Shown here piece by piece: positions 21,001 to 30,000 of a stretch of 64,000 bases of DNA. Made by a program: the position numbers. The number at the start of each line of letters is the position of its first letter. Positions within the stretch are counted from its first letter, which is position 1. Location of the stretch: contig NZ_MWQY01000018.1 in assembly GCF_002087085.1 (NCBI RefSeq), forward strand, positions 1 through 64,000, given 5' to 3'.

Positions 21001-24000
21001 TGGAAGGGAATACGCACGGAGCCGCCACAACATCGGATGGATGCTCCTTGAGGCCTGGCAGCCGTCCCTCGACTACCGCAGCAAATTCAAGGGTGAATAC
21101 GCCCTTATACACAGCCCTGTAAAACTGATAAGCCTGAAACCCATGACCTTCATGAATAAAAGCGGCGAAAGTCTCAGATCCTGCGCGGACTTTTTCTCCG
21201 TCTCACCCGGGGACATCCTGGTAATTCATGACGATCTGGAGCTCTCCTTTGGAGATGTTCAGATAAAGAAGGGGGGCGGCCTGGGAGGACACAACGGACT
21301 CAAGTCAGTCAGGCAGCACCTTGGGACCCCGGATTTTTACCGGCTGCGTTTCGGTATAGGACGCCCCCGGAGGGGCAGTGTTTCGGACTTTGTCCTTTCC
21401 CGGTTCTCCAAAGAAGAGGAAGCGGAGCTGCCGGATCTGCTTCTCAAGGGAGTTCAGATTCTGGAAGAGTTCATTCGCAAGGAGAAACAATGAACCACGA
21501 ATTATCCCTCAGGGTAATCGAGTATTTTGGAACCGACTCCAGAAGAATTCACCACGCCATGCAGGTCTACGGTTTTGCCGAGACAATTCTTCTTGCAGAA
21601 GGGATTGTCGGCAAGGAAAGGCAGGTCATTGAAACAGCAGCCCTTATCCATGACATCGGGATTCCTGAGGCGGAACGAAAACACGGCTCTTCCGCCGGCA
21701 ATTACCAGGAGCTCGAAGGACCTCCCCTGGCCCGGACAATCCTTGAAGGACTCTCATACCCGGAGGAGGTAATCAATCGCGTCTGCTTCATAATAGCCAA
21801 CCACCACAGCTACACTAAAATTGACGGCATCGACTTCCGCATACTCGTGGAAGCCGATCTTATCGTCAATATCTACGGCAACACCATGTCCCGGCAAGCC
21901 GCAGACACCCTGATCAGCAAACACTTTGTCACTGCCGCCGGGAGGCGAATCGCCGAAGGGATGTATCAGGGGTATTGAGCTCCCGCGACACCAACATATA
22001 CCGAGTACACAGCATGGGTTCCCATGATGAACAGCTGATTTCGTTTCTTTCCGCCAAAGGTGAGGTTGGCAACGACATCAGGGACCAGGATCTTACCGAG
22101 AAGCTCTCCCCCGGGAGAATAACAGTGAACACCGTCAGCTGCACTGCTCCAGACATTTCCGTCGATATCAACCCTGAATCCGTCGGAAATCCCCGGATTC
22201 ACTTCGACAAAGACCGTGTTCCCGCTTAACTCATTTCCATCTTTCACTTGGAAACGACGAATATGGTGGGCTCCATTCTTGTCGTGGGTAGCTCCCGTAT
22301 CCGAAATATAGAGGTATTTTTCATCGGGAGAAAAGGCCAGACCGTTGGGCATCTGGAAATCATCGGCCACGACCGTCAGCTTCTCTTCCTTCGGGTCATA
22401 CCGAAATACATAGTTCTTTCCTGTTTCGCTGGGGCTGCGCTTTCCCTCGTAATCAGACATGATGCCGTAGGGAGGATCGGTGAACCAGATTGTACCATCC
22501 GATTTAACAACGACATCATTCGGAGAATTAAGACGTTTCCCTTCATAATTATCAACCAGCACGGTTATCGATCCGTCTATTTCCGTGCGGGTAACCCTCC
22601 GGGAAAGATGCTCGCAGCTTATAAGGCGTCCCTGTCTGTCCCGGGTATTGCCATTGGAATTATTCGATGGCGACCTGAATACGCTCACCCCCAGACCATC
22701 AACCCAGCGCATCATGCGGTTATTGGGAATATCACTCCAGACAAAATAGTCCCCATCGGAAAAATAGACCGGACCTTCGCACCACTTCATTCCGTCATGA
22801 ACCAGTTCCAGGTCACAGTTTCCCAGCAGATAATACCGGAACCGTTCATCAAAAATTTCATAATCCCGAATACGTTCTCCCATACCTTGCTCCTTGTCTT
22901 TACGTACTCTTCAGCTGCCGAATAATACTGTCCAGCAATACAGAAAAGATGATGACCACACCGACGGCGGCTCCCTGCCAGAAGGGTGATACCCCGAGAA
23001 GATTTAATCCATTGTTAAGAACCGTAATAATGGCTATACCTATAAGCGTTCCCAGGAGCCCCCCCTTGCCGCCGGCAAGACTTGTTCCTCCGATGACGAC
23101 TGCAGCAATGGCATTCAATTCAATATTTATGCCCGTATCAGGATCGACTGCTCCCAGGCGGGATGTAAGAATCAATCCGGAAACAGCGCAAAGAAAACCG
23201 GTAATTGCATAGGTCAGCGCCGTATAAAAACGGACGCGTACGCCCGAAAGATGAGCGGCCTCTTCGTTGCTTCCGATGGCATAAATATATAAACCGACCT
23301 TCGTCTGTTTCAGCATGAAATAGGCCATTCCAAACAACACAATGAACACAATAAGGTACAAGGGAACGCTTCCGATCTCTGCATTTCCGAAAAAGCGATA
23401 CGCCTCAGGAAGTCCCACCAGCGAACGGCCATCCGTCAGCAGATATGTGGCCGATCGCCCTATGGATAAAAAGCCCAGGGTGACTATAAACGCCGCCAAC
23501 CGCGCATATGCCACAAGAAAACCCTTAATGACACCGACAAGGGTTCCCAAAAGCAGCATGGCAACAACGCCCGGAATTACACCGAACTGCTGCATTACGA
23601 TTCCACCGAACATTGCTGCCACCGCGGCGTTACTGCCTACGGACAGATCTATACCCCCCGTCAGGATTACAAGGGTTTGACCTATGGCAATAATCCCCAG
23701 AAATGTTGCCTGCCAGAACAGGTTTCGAAAGTTGCGAATGGTAAGGAACCTCGGGGTCAGTATCGTCAGTACCAGACAGAGAAGGATGAATGCAATTGTC
23801 ATGACAATCTCAACCTGGGATGTGTAGGACAGCAGCTTATTCCCTTTCTCTTTCCATTTCTGAATTAAATTTGGCGACCCGTACATAGTCTCTTTCATGA
23901 ATTTTCTACCTCGTTTGTTGATGCACTGGACGCATAGCGTATTATTTTCTCCTCATCTGCCTCTGACCAGTCCAGTTCTTTTACAATTGTGCCGGAATTC

Positions 24001-27000: not shown

Positions 27001-30000
27001 GCTGTACAGTCTCTCAGATGCGGCGCCTATGATTATGTTCAGAAACCCCTCGAATTTGAGGAACTGAGAGAGATTGTCGACCGTGCAGTCAGGGAAAATT
27101 CATCCGGGATGTCACAGCCCGGTCAGGAAACTTCATTTCCAAAGATTGTTACCCAGAGTAAAGAAATGCTCTCCATAATCAAGCAGATTGACAAGCTGGC
27201 ACCCAGCGATCTTCCCATCCTGATTCTCGGAGAAAACGGGACAGGGAAGGAACTGATTGCTGATCGAATTCATCGAAAGTCAAAGCGAAGCTGCCGGCAG
27301 ATGCTGAAAATAAACTGCGCGGCTCTGCCCGAATCGCTTCTTGATAACGAGCTTTTCGGACATGAGAAAGGGGCCTACACAGGAGCAGAGTCGACCTTTC
27401 AGGGTGTCTTTGAGAAGGCCGACGGAAGCAGCCTGATGCTGGATGAAATCGGAGACATGTCGCTGTCCATACAGGCCAAGATTCTCAGGACTCTGCAGCA
27501 TAACGAAATCAGGCGTATCGGAGGAACAGAAACCATATCCATAAATGTCCGATTCATTGCGGCTACCAACAAGGATATCGAAAGTCTCATAAAAAAAGGA
27601 GACTTCCGGGCGGACCTCTTCTATCGACTCAATACCGCTATTATTCGAGTCCCCCCCCTGAGAAACAGACGGGCCGATATCCTTCCCCTGGCACAAACGT
27701 TTCTGGAACAATACTCTCTGAAAAAGGGGATACCCGCAAAGTCACTGACGGACAAAGCTGCCGATATTCTGATGGAGTATCACTGGCCGGGCAATATACG
27801 GGAACTGAAGAATATTGTCGAGTACAGCGCAGCTATTACCGAGTTCTCCGACACCATCACCGACCGCGATCTTCCTCCGCAAATTATGGGAAAAGAAGAT
27901 CTGTTCTCTTCAGATGACGATCCACTCAATATACGTGAAACCATGGAAAGAGAACTTATACAGAAAACCCTGCACAATACCCTGTTCAATAAAAGCGAAA
28001 CTGCACGAATCCTTAAAATGAGCCGTCGAACCTTATACAATAAAATCCAACGCTACAATATTGATATATAAAGACCATGCCGGAAGTACCATTAATTGAG
28101 CTTAAAAATATCAATCTTGACTACGGAGACATTCCCGCCCTCCGTGACATTAACCTGTCCCTGCTGCCCGGAGAAGTGCACGGAATCGTGGGAGAACACG
28201 GTGCAGGCAAATCATCCCTGGGAAAAGTAATCAGTGGAGTAATCCGCCCTCAATCCGGTACTCTCTTATATAAAGGAAAACACTACGGAAACACATCTTT
28301 AAAAGAGGTAATGAAGCTCGGCATTCAGATGGTGTATCAGCATACACCGCTCATAGAAGATTTTACGGTGATAAAAAACCTGTATTTTGCTCATCAGCCT
28401 TCCGCTTTTTTTCGACGCCGCCAGCTGAATACCATCGCCGAAGAAGTGGATACCATAAAGAAAAAATATGGAATATCGATCGATACCAGTGCCCGGGTCC
28501 AGGACTTGAACCTGTCGGATAAAGCCGTGGTTGATATCATCAAACACGTCATATCCAGGCCCAGCCTGCTGATCCTTGACGAAGCGCTGGAAAAAATCGA
28601 AACAAAAAACCTGGGGCCGGTTATTGAACTCCTTCATGCCTTGAAAGACAATGGAATGTCGATTTTATTTATTACCCATCGAATCGATGATCTTTTTGAG
28701 TTTGCCGACCGGGTCAGCATTATACGAAACGGAACCGTTCTTCTAAGTGAGTATGTATACAATATAGATAAAATAAACCTCATCCGTATGACATATACGC
28801 AGATCAATAAAAAGAAATACCCGGGGGTATACAGCCAGGAATTCTATCGTCTGTTAAAGTATAATGAAGCCATTTTACGCAAATTGCCCATTAACCTTAT
28901 AGTGATCGATACGAAGGAACATGTCCGCCTCGTAAACGAGTACTGTAAGGAGTATTTCGGCATTGACGACAATGCAAATATCGAATTGACCCTCGATCAG
29001 ATCATCGACCGGGGATCAGAATCTTTTCGCTCATCCATGCAAAGCGCACTCAAAAAGCGAAAAGAGGAAGTCTTCTATCATCTTCCTCTTAGAATAGGAA
29101 ATCGCGAAATCGTAACAAACCTGCGTGTTCTTCCCATCTTTGATAAAACCTCATTTATCGGTTCCATTATAATAATTGAAGATATAACTGAATACGATAA
29201 GCTGCAGAAGCAATATGTCTTATCGGAAAAACTGGCCTCCGTCGGACTGCTGTCTGCCGGAGTTGCTCACGAAATCAACAATCCCCTTGAAATAATGCTC
29301 AATCAACTCAACTATATCAAGCTTTCTTTCCAGAACCAGGAACTCATCAGTCTGATTGATGATGTTAAAGAGGAAGTTACATTCATCGCAAAGATCGTAC
29401 GAAATCTGCTCTCCTTTACTGATAACCGAAAAGTTGAGGAAGACAACATAGAAATAAATCATCTTATAAACGAGGTGATACGTTTTGTACGATTTTCCGC
29501 CAAAAAGCGCTCTGTTCAGATAAGTGTGCATAATGCCCGGGATCCTCTTTATATCAAAGCGAATGCTGATGAGATACGACAGGTCTTTCTCAACCTCCTG
29601 AAAAACAGCTTCGAGGCAATGCCCGGAGGCGGAAAAATCAATATCAAGATCCAGTTTACAGAAATTAACGATAAGCACTATATTGAGGTGCGCCATTGTG
29701 ATACCGGCCATGGGATTCAGACAGAAAACCCGGATGATATTTTTCTTCCCTTCTTTTCCACAAAAGAGAGTAATGGATTAAATAACGGCCTGGGGCTTTC
29801 CGTCAGCTATGGAATCGTAAGCAAATATAATGGAATAATACAGGCGGAAAATGATCCCAATGGAGGTTGCATCTTTGTCATAAGATTACCGCTCCAACAA
29901 CCCGATGCAAAGGAGTAAAGGATGCAGCACTCCGAACTCTCAGCCGAAACCCTCAGCTTCATGAAGAACCTCGGATTCCCCAGGCTCAAGGTACATCACT

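Follow-up and report, generated by a model that had tools for sequence, protein, structure and literature searches.

What could a soluble histidine kinase sense if its input end is an NBD of the ABC-transporter type? The question is raised by a locus in the 64,000-nucleotide stretch of DNA analysed here (the window), where the genome-wide survey's note had placed such a kinase behind a sigma-54 response regulator and opposite a ribose-type importer operon, proposing a transporter-coupled or ATP-coupled sensor class that had not been described. The open reading frames lie where the note had put them (Table 1), and its claim of novelty agrees with our searches of open-access papers and bioRxiv full text, which returned no description of the NBD-kinase design.

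Table 1. Features of the locus, with positions in the window.
Feature	Position	Strand	Remarks
SMP-30/gluconolactonase/LRE-like enzyme	21966..22883	-	last operon gene
CUT2 permease (BPD_transp_2, RbsC-like)	22900..23898	-	
CUT2-type ATPase, two fused NBDs	23895..25451	-	N1 catalytic motifs; N2 LSGGNQQK
RbsB-like periplasmic sugar-binding protein (Peripla_BP_4)	25526..26527	-	first operon gene
Sigma-54 -24/-12 element TGGCATAAATATTGC	26554..26568	-	directed at transporter operon
Candidate regulator-binding (enhancer) sites, two exact TATCAATAAT copies	26592..26630		this locus
Candidate sigma-70-like promoter TTGACA-18-TATAGT	26641..26670	+	consensus match only, 11/12
NtrC/AtoC-type sigma-54 response regulator	26707..28071	+	REC, sigma-54 AAA+ with GAYTGA, HTH_8
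Soluble sensor histidine kinase	28077..29918	+	613 aa; ORF and profile matches
Kinase NBD	28077-28796 (about aa 1-240)	+	
Kinase flexible linker, NBD to PAS	aa 241-254	+	
Kinase PAS	28839-29192 (aa 255-372)	+	
Kinase DHp/CA	29193-29915 (aa 373-613)	+	phospho-acceptor His398

Architecture of the kinase

Pfam matches reproduce the domain order that the note had given, ABC NBD, PAS, HisKA and HATPase_c: ABC_tran (PF00005) matches residues 22-171 with 74.6 bits (cut-off 25), PAS_4 residues 268-372, HisKA residues 391-449 with 22.4 bits, under its cut-off of 26.9, and HATPase_c residues 496-607 with 72.2 bits (cut-off 26.4). Neither an NCBIfam model nor a PDB chain covers both the NBD and the kinase half. 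The fusion itself is conserved, as the note had also stated, with PF00005 and PF02518 present together in 120 of the 120 best homologues listed. With an H-box histidine in the DHp helix and N, G1 and G2 boxes, the protein is a class I (HisKA-type) kinase; His398, Asn506, Asn510, Asp542, Gly544, Gly546, Gly571 and Gly573 are each kept in 123-124 of 124 full-length representatives, drawn from the best 150 clusters at 50% identity. No 19-residue window reaches a Kyte-Doolittle value of 1.6 (maximum 1.48), which bears out the earlier prediction that the kinase contains no membrane helix. Both its solubility and the integrity of its kinase core motifs are strongly supported. In an AF2 monomer model the NBD-PAS linker (residues 241-256) is unstructured and the inter-domain arrangement is not given.

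Origin of the input domain

The kinase NBD scores above the gathering threshold of PF00005 and contains both Walker A (GEHGAGKS) and Walker B (LLILDE), while the LSGGQ signature is replaced by LSDKAV. Among the 124 representatives, Walker A Lys45 and Walker B Asp168 are each kept in 120 and the catalytic glutamate in 110, the Q-loop glutamine in 94 and the H-loop histidine in 85; the conservation of at least 90% that had been reported for the NBD motifs thus holds among close relatives and not throughout the family at large. The signature serine is kept in 53 of 124 members and the Gly-Gly is absent.

This combination resembles one half of a CUT2 ATPase. Like N1, the kinase NBD joins canonical Walker A, Q-loop, Walker B-Glu and H-loop motifs to a degenerate signature, and of the three domains compared N2 alone has the canonical LSGGNQQK; the motifs of the kinase NBD are precisely those that N1 supplies to the one consensus ATP site. 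The two differ in the D-loop (LDEALEKL in the kinase, LDEPTSAL in N1) and in the signature, which is more degenerate in the kinase (LSD[RK]) than in N1, and identity to any N1 is about 28-31%. In a quick ML tree the kinase NBDs form one group (SH-aLRT 94) that is sister to CUT2 N1 (83), the joint clade having a support of 97 and N2 standing apart at 99. Comparison at the sequence level thus strongly supports an input end that is a single NBD descended from the N1 of CUT2 ATPases. The best NCBIfam matches of residues 4-255 are likewise CUT2 ATPases (RbsA, XylG, AraG, AlsA, YtfR and MglA; E 1e-38 to 5e-45). A CUT2 ATPase such as RbsA, XylG or AraG was nevertheless rejected as the identity of the kinase: there is a single NBD, the scores of 130-154 bits fall far under the equivalog cut-offs of 586-850, only profile positions 1 to about 240-250 of some 500 are covered, and PAS-HisKA-HATPase stands where a CUT2 ATPase has N2.

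Wiring to the adjoining importer operon

The regulator starts at a GTG at 26707 or an ATG at 26719 and ends 5 nt ahead of the kinase start. Matches to Response_reg, Sigma54_activat (219.7 bits) and HTH_8 mark it as an NtrC-type enhancer-binding regulator, and we take its GAYTGA to be the GAFTGA-type loop of sigma-54 activators. It aligns to AtoC over its full length (E 1.3e-126) but with 423 bits against an equivalog cut-off of 714. TTGACA-18-TATAGT, the best sigma-70-like match within 21400-31200, is a candidate for the promoter of the regulator-kinase operon.

The CUT2 operon runs divergently and encodes, in order, binding protein, double-NBD ATPase, permease and lactonase. Its binding protein has a signal- or lipoprotein-like N-terminus, and contigs nearly identical to its gene occur in four RNA libraries; the terminal SMP-30/gluconolactonase/LRE-like gene hints at the substrate class. 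The sigma-54 element that the note had located upstream of this operon is an exact match, 27 nt from the binding-protein ATG at 26527 and the sole exact TGGCA-N6-TTGC in the 64 kb (chance mean 0.5 per window). Read as TGGCAC-N5-TTGC, with GG and GC 10 nt apart, upstream of a gene and in a genome in which rpoN was found, it qualifies as a sigma-54 promoter. Opening of such promoters needs an NtrC-type activator. The two TATCAATAAT copies lie 29 nt apart and 25-60 nt upstream of the -24 element.

How general is this arrangement? The note's contexts had all come from one phylum. In the window's phylum the family occurs in 14 of 401 genomes, but it is not confined there: seven of nine genomes of a second phylum carry it, with 2-6 copies each. 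As far as homologous sequences tell, the NBD-input kinase design is widespread. The regulator is found directly upstream of the kinase at all 23 genome loci of the window's phylum and upstream of it in 19 of 19 modules of the second; among metagenome loci HMM searches place it there in 58 of 59, and at the sole miss (L177) a regulator match was obtained by tblastn. CUT2 genes are within reach at 22 of the 23 genome loci, in all 19 second-phylum modules and at 17/17 metagenome loci that have 6 kb or more of sequence on either side; one regulator-kinase pair (L114) has no CUT2 gene within 9 kb. Against a background of 0.128 per kb of strand, a -24/-12 element points toward the operon in 24 of 25 genome modules and toward the transporter at 58 of 65 further loci, with the opposite direction at 4 of these 65. 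The regulator pairing, the CUT2 neighbourhood and the promoter orientation described by the note have therefore withstood a much wider sample. At nearly every locus the transporter comes with a complete double-NBD ATPase of its own whose N1 motifs are canonical; for this locus such an ATPase had already been remarked. In two separate clades the 3' end of the kinase gene directly adjoins a second permease paralogue, an arrangement that favours coupling to the transporter.

That the regulator-kinase operon adjoins a transporter operon with a conserved sigma-54 promoter is thus strongly supported, and a two-component system that switches a CUT2 operon for sugar import and catabolism is a well-supported account of the wiring: kinase and regulator probably switch on the adjoining importer. 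Up to six paralogous kinase systems occur per genome, each beside a different CUT2 operon, and cargo genes vary between loci. Binding proteins share only about 23-25% identity between loci, compared with 39-47% for the kinase domains, from which we infer that the module serves many substrates.

What the NBD may read

If only the sigma-54 two-component sugar switch were true, the unusual input domain would still want explaining. Our preferred account, which we hold tentatively and at somewhat less than even chances, is that the kinase NBD mimics N1 and reads the state of the cognate transporter, which would make the protein a transport-coupled sensor, of occupancy or of flux, fashioned out of a piece of transporter. 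In the kinase dimer, the NBDs would bind the permease from its cytoplasmic side, either next to the ATPase or replacing it, or would pair with N2. Docking of the substrate-loaded binding protein would favour ATP-dependent closure of the NBDs, which would be relayed through PAS to the DHp helices and lead to phosphorylation of His398; the phosphorylated regulator would then stimulate sigma-54 transcription of the importer and catabolic genes. A more specific version, which we consider doubtful, has the NBD stand in for N1, so that binding protein, permease and soluble kinase together form a transmembrane receptor of transporter parts. Here the kinase dimer would sit on the permease dimer or pair with N2, whose LSGGNQQK would complete the signature-less catalytic site of the kinase NBD, and substrate occupancy outside would cause ATP-dependent NBD closure and histidine phosphorylation. 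Such a fused, generic flux or occupancy sensor could serve many sugars by swapping the transporter.

Physical contact between NBD and transporter, on which these proposals depend, is only suggested. In partial Mantel tests over 52 loci, controlled for PAS, DHp/CA and regulator and liberal when sequences are related, the NBD covaries with the permease (r=0.30, p=0.0003) and with N2 (r=0.23, p=0.0017); it gives no signal for N1 or the binding protein, and PAS, DHp/CA and regulator give none against any transporter part. The signal survives when the set is thinned to 39 loci, with r=0.27 for the permease and r=0.26 for N2 (p=0.003). The stricter test on 26 independent, non-overlapping nearest pairs does not reproduce this domain specificity: NBD-permease gives r=0.29, p=0.07, and correlations appear for PAS-permease (r=0.35, p=0.035), NBD-binding protein (r=0.46, p=0.012) and regulator-N1 (r=0.46, p=0.01). 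A predicted complex of the NBD with two permease copies scores 0.54 against 0.32 for the best of three controls. Predictions in this band tend to be wrong more often than correct unless the guess had prior plausibility: of 157 solved complexes 116 reach the mark, as do 2 of 215 mismatches, but at scores up to 0.60 it is reached by just 18 of the solved complexes and by the two passing mismatches. The runs share at least 84% of contacts, and the partner's pLDDT is at least 76. Likeness may put any NBD on any ABC permease; a PDB sequence search found no relative of the CUT2 permease. The kinase NBD is no closer to its cognate N1 than to others, either overall (28.2% vs 27.8% identity) or in the helical subdomain (23.2% vs 23.0%). 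The altered D-loop, the L114 pair with its lack of nearby CUT2 genes and the unstructured NBD-PAS linker of the model likewise speak against the preferred account.

Because the transporter nearly always has its own ATPase, no slot is obviously vacant for the kinase NBD, and this same fact suits a rather unlikely alternative in which the NBD never meets the transporter. PAS would bind the imported sugar or its first metabolite, the NBD would set the competence of the kinase as an ATP-dependent clamp or gate for dimerisation, and the wiring to the CUT2 operon would be unchanged. While the PAS core and N-cap are conserved, variability is greatest in the segment of about residues 290-330, the stretch that in PAS domains commonly lines the pocket, as expected of paralogues with differing ligands; in the independent pairs the divergence of PAS tracks that of permease and binding protein no less than the divergence of the NBD does, and the L114 pair occurs with no CUT2 gene beside it. 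The Walker lysine and aspartate are, moreover, far better kept than the H-loop histidine, which argues that nucleotide binding is of wider importance than hydrolysis. What a ligand-sensing PAS leaves without a reason is the recruitment, as a mere clamp, of an N1-type CUT2 NBD that always stands next to CUT2 transporters; the partial Mantel signal with transporter parts belongs to the NBD and not to PAS, and the window's subfamily keeps the catalytic glutamate and the H-loop histidine although a homodimer would lack a canonical signature.

The contact evidence would serve equally well an improbable reading in which the kinase regulates the transporter, its NBD competing with the ATPase or capping the permease and so throttling uptake post-translationally, with signalling to the regulator as a second output or feedback. 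This would be akin to KdpD acting on KdpB or to inducer exclusion at MalK, and KdpD offers a precedent, since this kinase, whose N-terminal domain is of the P-loop kind, exerts two-level control over its pump (PMC11018627). The kinase should, however, be far scarcer than the induced transporter, and the conserved sigma-54 wiring already accounts for the neighbourhood. Very improbable, in our estimate, is a pure energy-state sensor, in which NBD dimerisation reports cellular ATP/ADP and energy charge alone switches the operon. Almost all members of the family have the ATP-binding motifs, and Pfam recognises in the kinase no small-molecule domain other than PAS, the NBD aside, both of which would suit such a sensor; yet second-phylum genomes hold 2-6 paralogues, each by a different CUT2 operon with different cargo, and one common signal cannot yield substrate-specific induction across them. 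The strict CUT2 association would also be left unexplained. The "ATP-coupled" option of the survey's note is accordingly discarded as the only signal, since single genomes hold up to six such systems beside their own transporters.

Implications

Known "trigger transporters", or cases of flux sensing, are few systems whose partners are separate proteins and whose contact is hard to trap. With a transporter-derived domain fused to the kinase in a large, uniform and soluble family, the present proteins should be tractable for studying how NBD closure might drive a PAS-DHp kinase. The assignment gives an identity to many proteins that databases call only "ATP-binding cassette domain-containing protein" or "histidine kinase", predicts a regulon for each kinase copy, namely the neighbouring CUT2 operon, and so helps to annotate how sugars are used by spirochaetes, by filamentous bacteria of the Moduliflexus type and in sediment metagenomes.

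Comparison with known systems

In Bce-type modules the kinase BceS is a membrane protein that touches the permease BceB within the membrane, and the transporter is an exporter-type resistance pump; to our knowledge these modules have neither an NBD-kinase fusion nor a sigma-54 link. BceRS with BceAB is described as ABC-transporter-dependent kinase signalling by "flux sensing" (PMC9169098, PMC7438565), a likeness in that a kinase lacking any extracellular sensor is proposed to read, and then to induce, its partner ABC transporter. The kinase described here is soluble and itself bears the NBD, and a Bce-type module, whose intramembrane-sensing kinase carries two membrane helices and whose permease is of the BceB type, was rejected because membrane helices are absent from the kinase here and its neighbouring permease belongs to BPD_transp_2; the likeness is functional only. 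In the Pho system the PAS-containing kinase PhoR takes its information from an ABC importer by way of the NBD side (PhoU, PstB, PstSCAB). There, PhoU bridges an NBD and a kinase that are separate proteins, and PhoR is anchored in the membrane, whereas here NBD and PAS share one chain. No gene resembling PhoU came to notice, although no search aimed at one was made.

AtoS/AtoC and NtrB/NtrC-type sigma-54 systems resemble the signalling half: residues 256-610 of the kinase align to AtoS (E 5.7e-66). AtoS is, however, a membrane protein without an NBD, and its equivalog (NF008468) was rejected at 223.2 bits against a cut-off of 646, residues 256-610 alone being aligned. KdpD, too, is a histidine kinase that governs its cognate transporter and has, at its N-terminus, a cytoplasmic nucleotide-binding domain of the P-loop kind (PMC11018627, PMC2714519). 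Its N-terminal domain belongs to another family, and KdpD has membrane helices, an OmpR-type partner and a P-type pump; a KdpD-type kinase was rejected, as the Pfam matches (E up to 0.01) include neither a KdpD nor a Usp domain.

In LuxPQ, TorT/TorS and ChvE/VirA a sugar-type periplasmic binding protein gives the kinase its signal. GltB/GtrS likewise has a periplasmic binding protein that supplies the signal to the kinase (PMC7927077). All four kinases are membrane-spanning and contact the binding protein directly on the periplasmic side; the kinase here is soluble, so that any signal from the binding protein would have to cross through the permease.

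Domain structure of the kinase and its genomic setting

The genome-wide survey's note had described a cytoplasmic kinase built as NBD-PAS-HisKA-HATPase, and both its ORF positions and this architecture are borne out by the ORF coordinates in the window and by the Pfam placement of four domains (see table). In NCBIfam, kinase residues 4–255 match YtfR, AlsA, AraG, XylG, RbsA and MglA, CUT2 ATPase models of about 500 positions of which only the first half is covered, and residues 256–610 match AtoS, with the scores of both halves far under the equivalog cut-offs. Neither an NCBIfam model nor a PDB chain covering both halves was found, 3a0r being the best match to the kinase half, and hydrophobicity reveals no membrane helix in the kinase (Kyte–Doolittle maximum 1.48 in 19-residue windows versus 2.83 in the permease). 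An AF2 monomer (pLDDT 76, pTM 0.42) gives confident domains and no inter-domain geometry.

The divergent operon encodes a transporter which, following transporter classification, we take to be of the CUT2 type. Upstream of it lies a sigma-54 element, and rpoN is present in the genome. The exact pattern TGGCA-N6-TTGC occurs once in 64 kb and is not significant as a lone match, since 41 of 100 shuffles contain at least one; the weight of the element comes from its position and from its conservation in other loci. The two TATCAATAAT copies may be activator sites. Contigs from four sediment RNA libraries (three studies) match parts of the module genes at 97–100% identity (binding protein in 4/4 runs, kinase in two, regulator in one); they are uninformative on start, strand and level, and may reflect DNA carry-over. 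Permease, ATPase and promoter region lack such cover, which carries no weight either way.

G+C amounts to 42–48% in the regulator and kinase genes (26000–30000) versus 52–58% in the flanks (18000–22000, 30000–34000), which may indicate horizontal acquisition. Beyond the region of the 383-aa ORF lie genes for a MarC-family protein and for a fused trehalose-6-phosphate synthase/phosphatase. Elsewhere in the window, the HSP20-family ORF may, by the motif at its start, be a sigma-54-dependent small heat-shock gene.

Positions of features in the window and, where an L-number (compared genome or metagenome locus) is given, elsewhere
Feature	Position	Strand	Remarks
RbsB-like binding protein	ATG at 26527	-	first listed gene of tightly packed operon
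Other operon genes		-	double-NBD ATPase, BPD_transp_2 permease, SMP-30/gluconolactonase-like enzyme
Sigma-54 element TGGCATAAATATTGC	26568-26554	-	27 nt upstream of binding-protein ATG; ribosome-binding site next
TATCAATAAT, two exact copies	25-60 nt upstream of -24 element		candidate activator sites
Sigma-70-like promoter TTGACA-18-TATAGT	26641-26670		11/12 match, ahead of regulator gene
Response regulator, NtrC/AtoC-type	26707-28071	+	REC, sigma-54 AAA+ domain with GAYTGA loop, HTH_8
Kinase, 613 aa	28077-29918	+	begins five nt 3' of regulator
ABC_tran in kinase	residues 22-171		Pfam, 74.6 bits
PAS_4 in kinase	residues 268-372		Pfam
HisKA in kinase	residues 391-449		Pfam, 22.4 bits, slightly below cut-off
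HATPase_c in kinase	residues 496-607		Pfam
383-aa ORF	29922-31073	+	starts 3 nt past kinase stop; ~57% G+C; no Pfam match at E<=1e-6
297-aa ORF	29940-30833		antisense to 383-aa ORF; no Pfam match either; one of the two ORFs, or neither, may be a real gene
HSP20-family ORF	20248-20745	-	
Sigma-54-like TGGCATGAAAAATGCT	20734-20749	-	score 12/14, at start of HSP20-family ORF
-24/-12 element	L114 7299-7314	-	good match, toward Big_5/ice-binding-like gene 735 nt off
Sugar genes	L114 11153-16130	+	LacI-type, FGGY kinase, class II aldolase, L-arabinose isomerase
Paired modules	L022:4947-11797; L213:7698-18384		each facing own CUT2 operon, which has its own sigma-54 element
Single-NBD ATPases	L117:5703-6500; L123:2623-3411, 5908-6753; L143:5352-6149; L154:1333-2133		half-size ATPases or assembly breaks
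879-aa MCP protein	L009:13693-16332	-	MCP signalling domain plus C-terminal Peripla_BP_4 domain for sugar binding
Second permease	L135:11843-13021	-	last gene of catabolic operon
Broken family members	L115:9250-10698 + 8846-9079; L029:2646-4453; L120:9135-10712		stop or frameshift, or first 50-85 residues missing

Size and distribution of the family

The pairing of PF00005 with PF02518, previously listed for all of the 120 best homologues, holds for 120/120 in a 90%-clustered database; these proteins measure 586–642 aa, and their sources include Marispirochaeta (87% identity), Candidatus Vecturithrix, Candidatus Moduliflexus, candidate division KSB3 and Desulfomarina. An exhaustive search at E<=1e-30 returned 7,136 proteins among 50%-identity representatives, ordinary kinases included; 124 of the best 150 representatives are full-length (585–660 aa), with identities as low as 26%. 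The window's genome carries one copy, next to roughly 12 CUT2 permeases other than that of the window, and its phylum contains full-length matches at E<=1e-60 in 14/401 sampled genomes (10/336 high-quality genomes). The caveat that all contexts come from this one phylum is not upheld: In a second phylum, that of the Moduliflexus/KSB3 genomes, 7/9 genomes carry the family in 2–6 copies each. Two subfamilies can be distinguished, A with the window's kinase and B with 27–32% identity to it.

Loci were collected by whole-genome searches and, in metagenomes, by a scan that started from the NBD-PAS half, instead of a full-length-alignment contig scan that favoured kinase-core patterns and yielded full-length family members at 6/80 loci, the rest being mostly unrelated kinases. 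Longer forms of 1074–3065 aa did not appear at E<=1e-40, in a search that is weak as evidence. The single clearly longer form among the best 150 is P0217, a homologue of 851 aa that comprises an NBD, HisKA in two stretches, and HATPase_c; a kinase fused to both the N-terminal (N1) and the C-terminal NBD (N2) of a CUT2 ATPase was not seen among the forms searched, best 150 included. Further Atlas clusters combine ABC_tran and HisKA (scores 0.83–0.84, leads only), among them an Actinomycetota cluster of ~852 aa that has GAF_2 beside ABC_tran and HisKA, and a Spirochaetota cluster of ~515 aa; NBD and kinase may have become fused on more than one occasion. The broken family members at L115, L029 and L120 may be pseudogenes or assembly errors of draft genomes.

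Conservation of the sigma-54 wiring

The adjacency of regulator and kinase noted by the survey recurs throughout: The regulator lies directly upstream of the kinase in 23/23 first-phylum modules with upstream sequence, including L012, where the ORF call had taken an antisense frame and tblastn confirmed the regulator. The reported CUT2 neighbourhood is found likewise, with adjoining CUT2 genes in 22/23 of these modules, the exception being L114, where a LacI-type gene and araB/araD/araA-like genes follow downstream in place of CUT2. Among 80 metagenome loci, 73 of them with distinct kinases, a regulator precedes the kinase in 58/59 for which 1.4 kb or more of upstream sequence is available, and the single miss (L177) gives a regulator match by tblastn; CUT2 parts are present at 17/17 loci whose sequence extends 6 kb or more to either side and at 41/43 where it extends 6 kb to one side or both. 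Regulator and CUT2 genes accompany 19/19 second-phylum modules as well, at L215 with the CUT2 genes ~4 kb away.

At a score of at least 12/14 with GG and GC fixed, a -24/-12 element is aimed at the transporter in 24/25 modules of the first set, as the survey's note had proposed. In further loci it points toward the operon in 58/65 and in the opposite direction in 4/65, against a background of 0.128 per kb of strand and a typical inter-operon region of ~350 nt; this count leaves out 11 modules in which the closest CUT2 gene is oriented toward the module, as well as loci lacking a regulator or a CUT2 gene at a distance of up to 4.5 kb. Because of these regulator, CUT2 and element counts, we regard the predicted regulatory wiring as well supported, as well as comparative genomics permits.

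Several loci deserve mention in their own right. L114 (G143:C31) is the only module without CUT2 within 9 kb. At L022 and L213 two modules stand side by side, the entire unit having been duplicated locally. In some family-adjacent CUT2 operons a single-NBD, N1-like ATPase of 262–281 aa replaces the double-NBD protein, and at L009 only a few kb separate the gene for the MCP protein from the kinase locus.

One module for many substrates

The cargo of the operons varies by locus and includes FGGY kinases, Zn-dependent dehydrogenases, shikimate-dehydrogenase-like enzymes, GFO/IDH/MocA oxidoreductases, Dak1/RpiB, GatZ/PfkB and, in the window, the lactonase. Over 52 complete loci, mean pairwise identity is 25% for the binding protein, 36% for the permease, 43% for N1 and 42% for N2, and on the side of the module 42% for the kinase NBD, 39% for PAS, 47% for DHp/CA and 51% for the regulator. 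Simple Mantel correlations between module and transporter parts reach at most 0.13, except for NBD-permease (0.23, p=0.01). From this spread of identities and the weak correlations we infer that one well-conserved regulatory module is joined to transporters for many substrates.

Origin and state of the NBD

A quick ML tree was computed for 92 NBDs: 29 from kinases, both halves of 27 CUT2 ATPases and nine other single NBDs from the window's genome. It unites the NBDs of the kinases in a single group (SH-aLRT 94), with the N1 group as its sister (83); the clade of the two together is supported at 97, and N2 stands apart (99). CUT2 N1 has a canonical Walker A, Q-loop, Walker B-Glu and H-loop together with a degenerate signature (LSVAQQQ); N2 has GxGRT, Glu for the Q-loop Gln, Ser for the H-loop His, and a canonical LSGGNQQK. 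Given this split of motifs and general knowledge of ABC proteins, CUT2 ATPases should possess one consensus ATP site, composed of N1 and the N2 signature. The kinase NBD retains the N1 set (GEHGAGKS, VYQ, LLILDE, ITHR), with a signature, LSD[RK], more degenerate than that of N1 and a D-loop altered to LDEALEKL.

Across 124 representatives, the Walker A Lys and the Walker B Asp are each kept in 120, the catalytic Glu in 110, the Q-loop Gln in 94, the H-loop His in 85 and the signature Ser in 53; kinase His398 is kept in all 124. Because of this conservation, ATP binding is predicted to be nearly universal in the family. The hydrolysis residues are strongly conserved mainly in subfamily A.

Possible coupling of the NBD to the transporter

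Partial Mantel tests over the 52 loci, in which each module part was compared with each transporter part while controlling for the other module parts, give NBD-permease r=0.30 (p=0.0003) and NBD-N2 r=0.23 (p=0.0017), compared with r=0.07 for NBD-N1 and r=-0.02 for NBD-binding protein; PAS, DHp/CA and regulator show no positive signal with transporter parts in this set. The NBD signal extends beyond the helical subdomain and persists after thinning to 39 loci with less than 75% kinase identity (NBD-permease 0.27, NBD-N2 0.26, p=0.003 each). In a more conservative design of 26 non-overlapping nearest pairs, the specificity for the NBD is lost: NBD-permease (r=0.29, p=0.07) stands beside PAS-permease (r=0.35, p=0.035), NBD-binding protein (r=0.46, p=0.012) and regulator-N1 (r=0.46, p=0.01). 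A closer resemblance of the kinase NBD to its cognate N1 was rejected as negligible (28.2% versus 27.8% non-cognate, p=0.04), with none in the helical subdomain.

Complex prediction for kinase residues 1–245 with two permease copies, run on alignments built for this analysis, scored 0.54 versus 0.32 for the best of three controls, which is weak support: The mark applied is reached by 116/157 solved complexes and 2/215 mismatches, and in the range up to 0.60 the passing scores belong to only 18/157 solved complexes and to both of the passing mismatches. At least 84% of contacts are common to the runs, and partner pLDDT is 76 or higher. A sequence search of the PDB turned up no CUT2 permease relative, and general ABC likeness could still yield such a pose. 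Together, the four tests lean toward contact between NBD and transporter without establishing it.

In two separate clades (L129, L133, L135, L136 and L191, L202, L204), with ~45% identity between the kinases of one clade and those of the other, a second, convergent BPD_transp_2 permease gene lies at most about 20 nt from the kinase stop. It shares 72–75% identity with the in-operon permease in clade 1 and 46–48% in clade 2, and is not accompanied by a separate ATPase or binding-protein gene. At L135 it is preceded in its operon by genes for AFOR, Zn-ADHs, an AraA-like protein, an FGGY kinase and GFO/IDH/MocA. This permease could serve as another subunit of the transporter or as a partner specific to the kinase; its position is a hint, at the level of gene order, of NBD-transporter coupling.

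Possible modes of signalling

As the most likely explanation, favoured tentatively, we propose a transport-coupled sensor: The N1-derived NBD would read the state of the cognate CUT2 transporter, and its ATP-dependent closure would be relayed via PAS to the kinase. The main rival, which we judge possible and rather doubtful, holds that PAS binds a cytoplasmic ligand and that the NBD is an ATP-dependent clamp. A minor alternative is that the NBD acts on the transporter. Sensing of the energy state alone is also a minor option, against which speak the up to six paralogous modules per cell; a shared signal such as the ATP level is therefore not the whole input.

Returning to the transport-coupled sensor, the boldest version that the data allow is an NBD standing in for N1, which would fit the retained N1 half-site, a homodimer devoid of a canonical signature, and co-divergence with N2 and permease, not N1. 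The observation itself is solid and the family large.

Database names of the homologues are generic, and a literature search covering main texts, mostly of openly accessible journals, found no description of the NBD-kinase fusion. By that search, an NBD as input domain on such a kinase has apparently not been described before; as a two-component system which controls its cognate transporter and probably reads it, the module is of a known kind.
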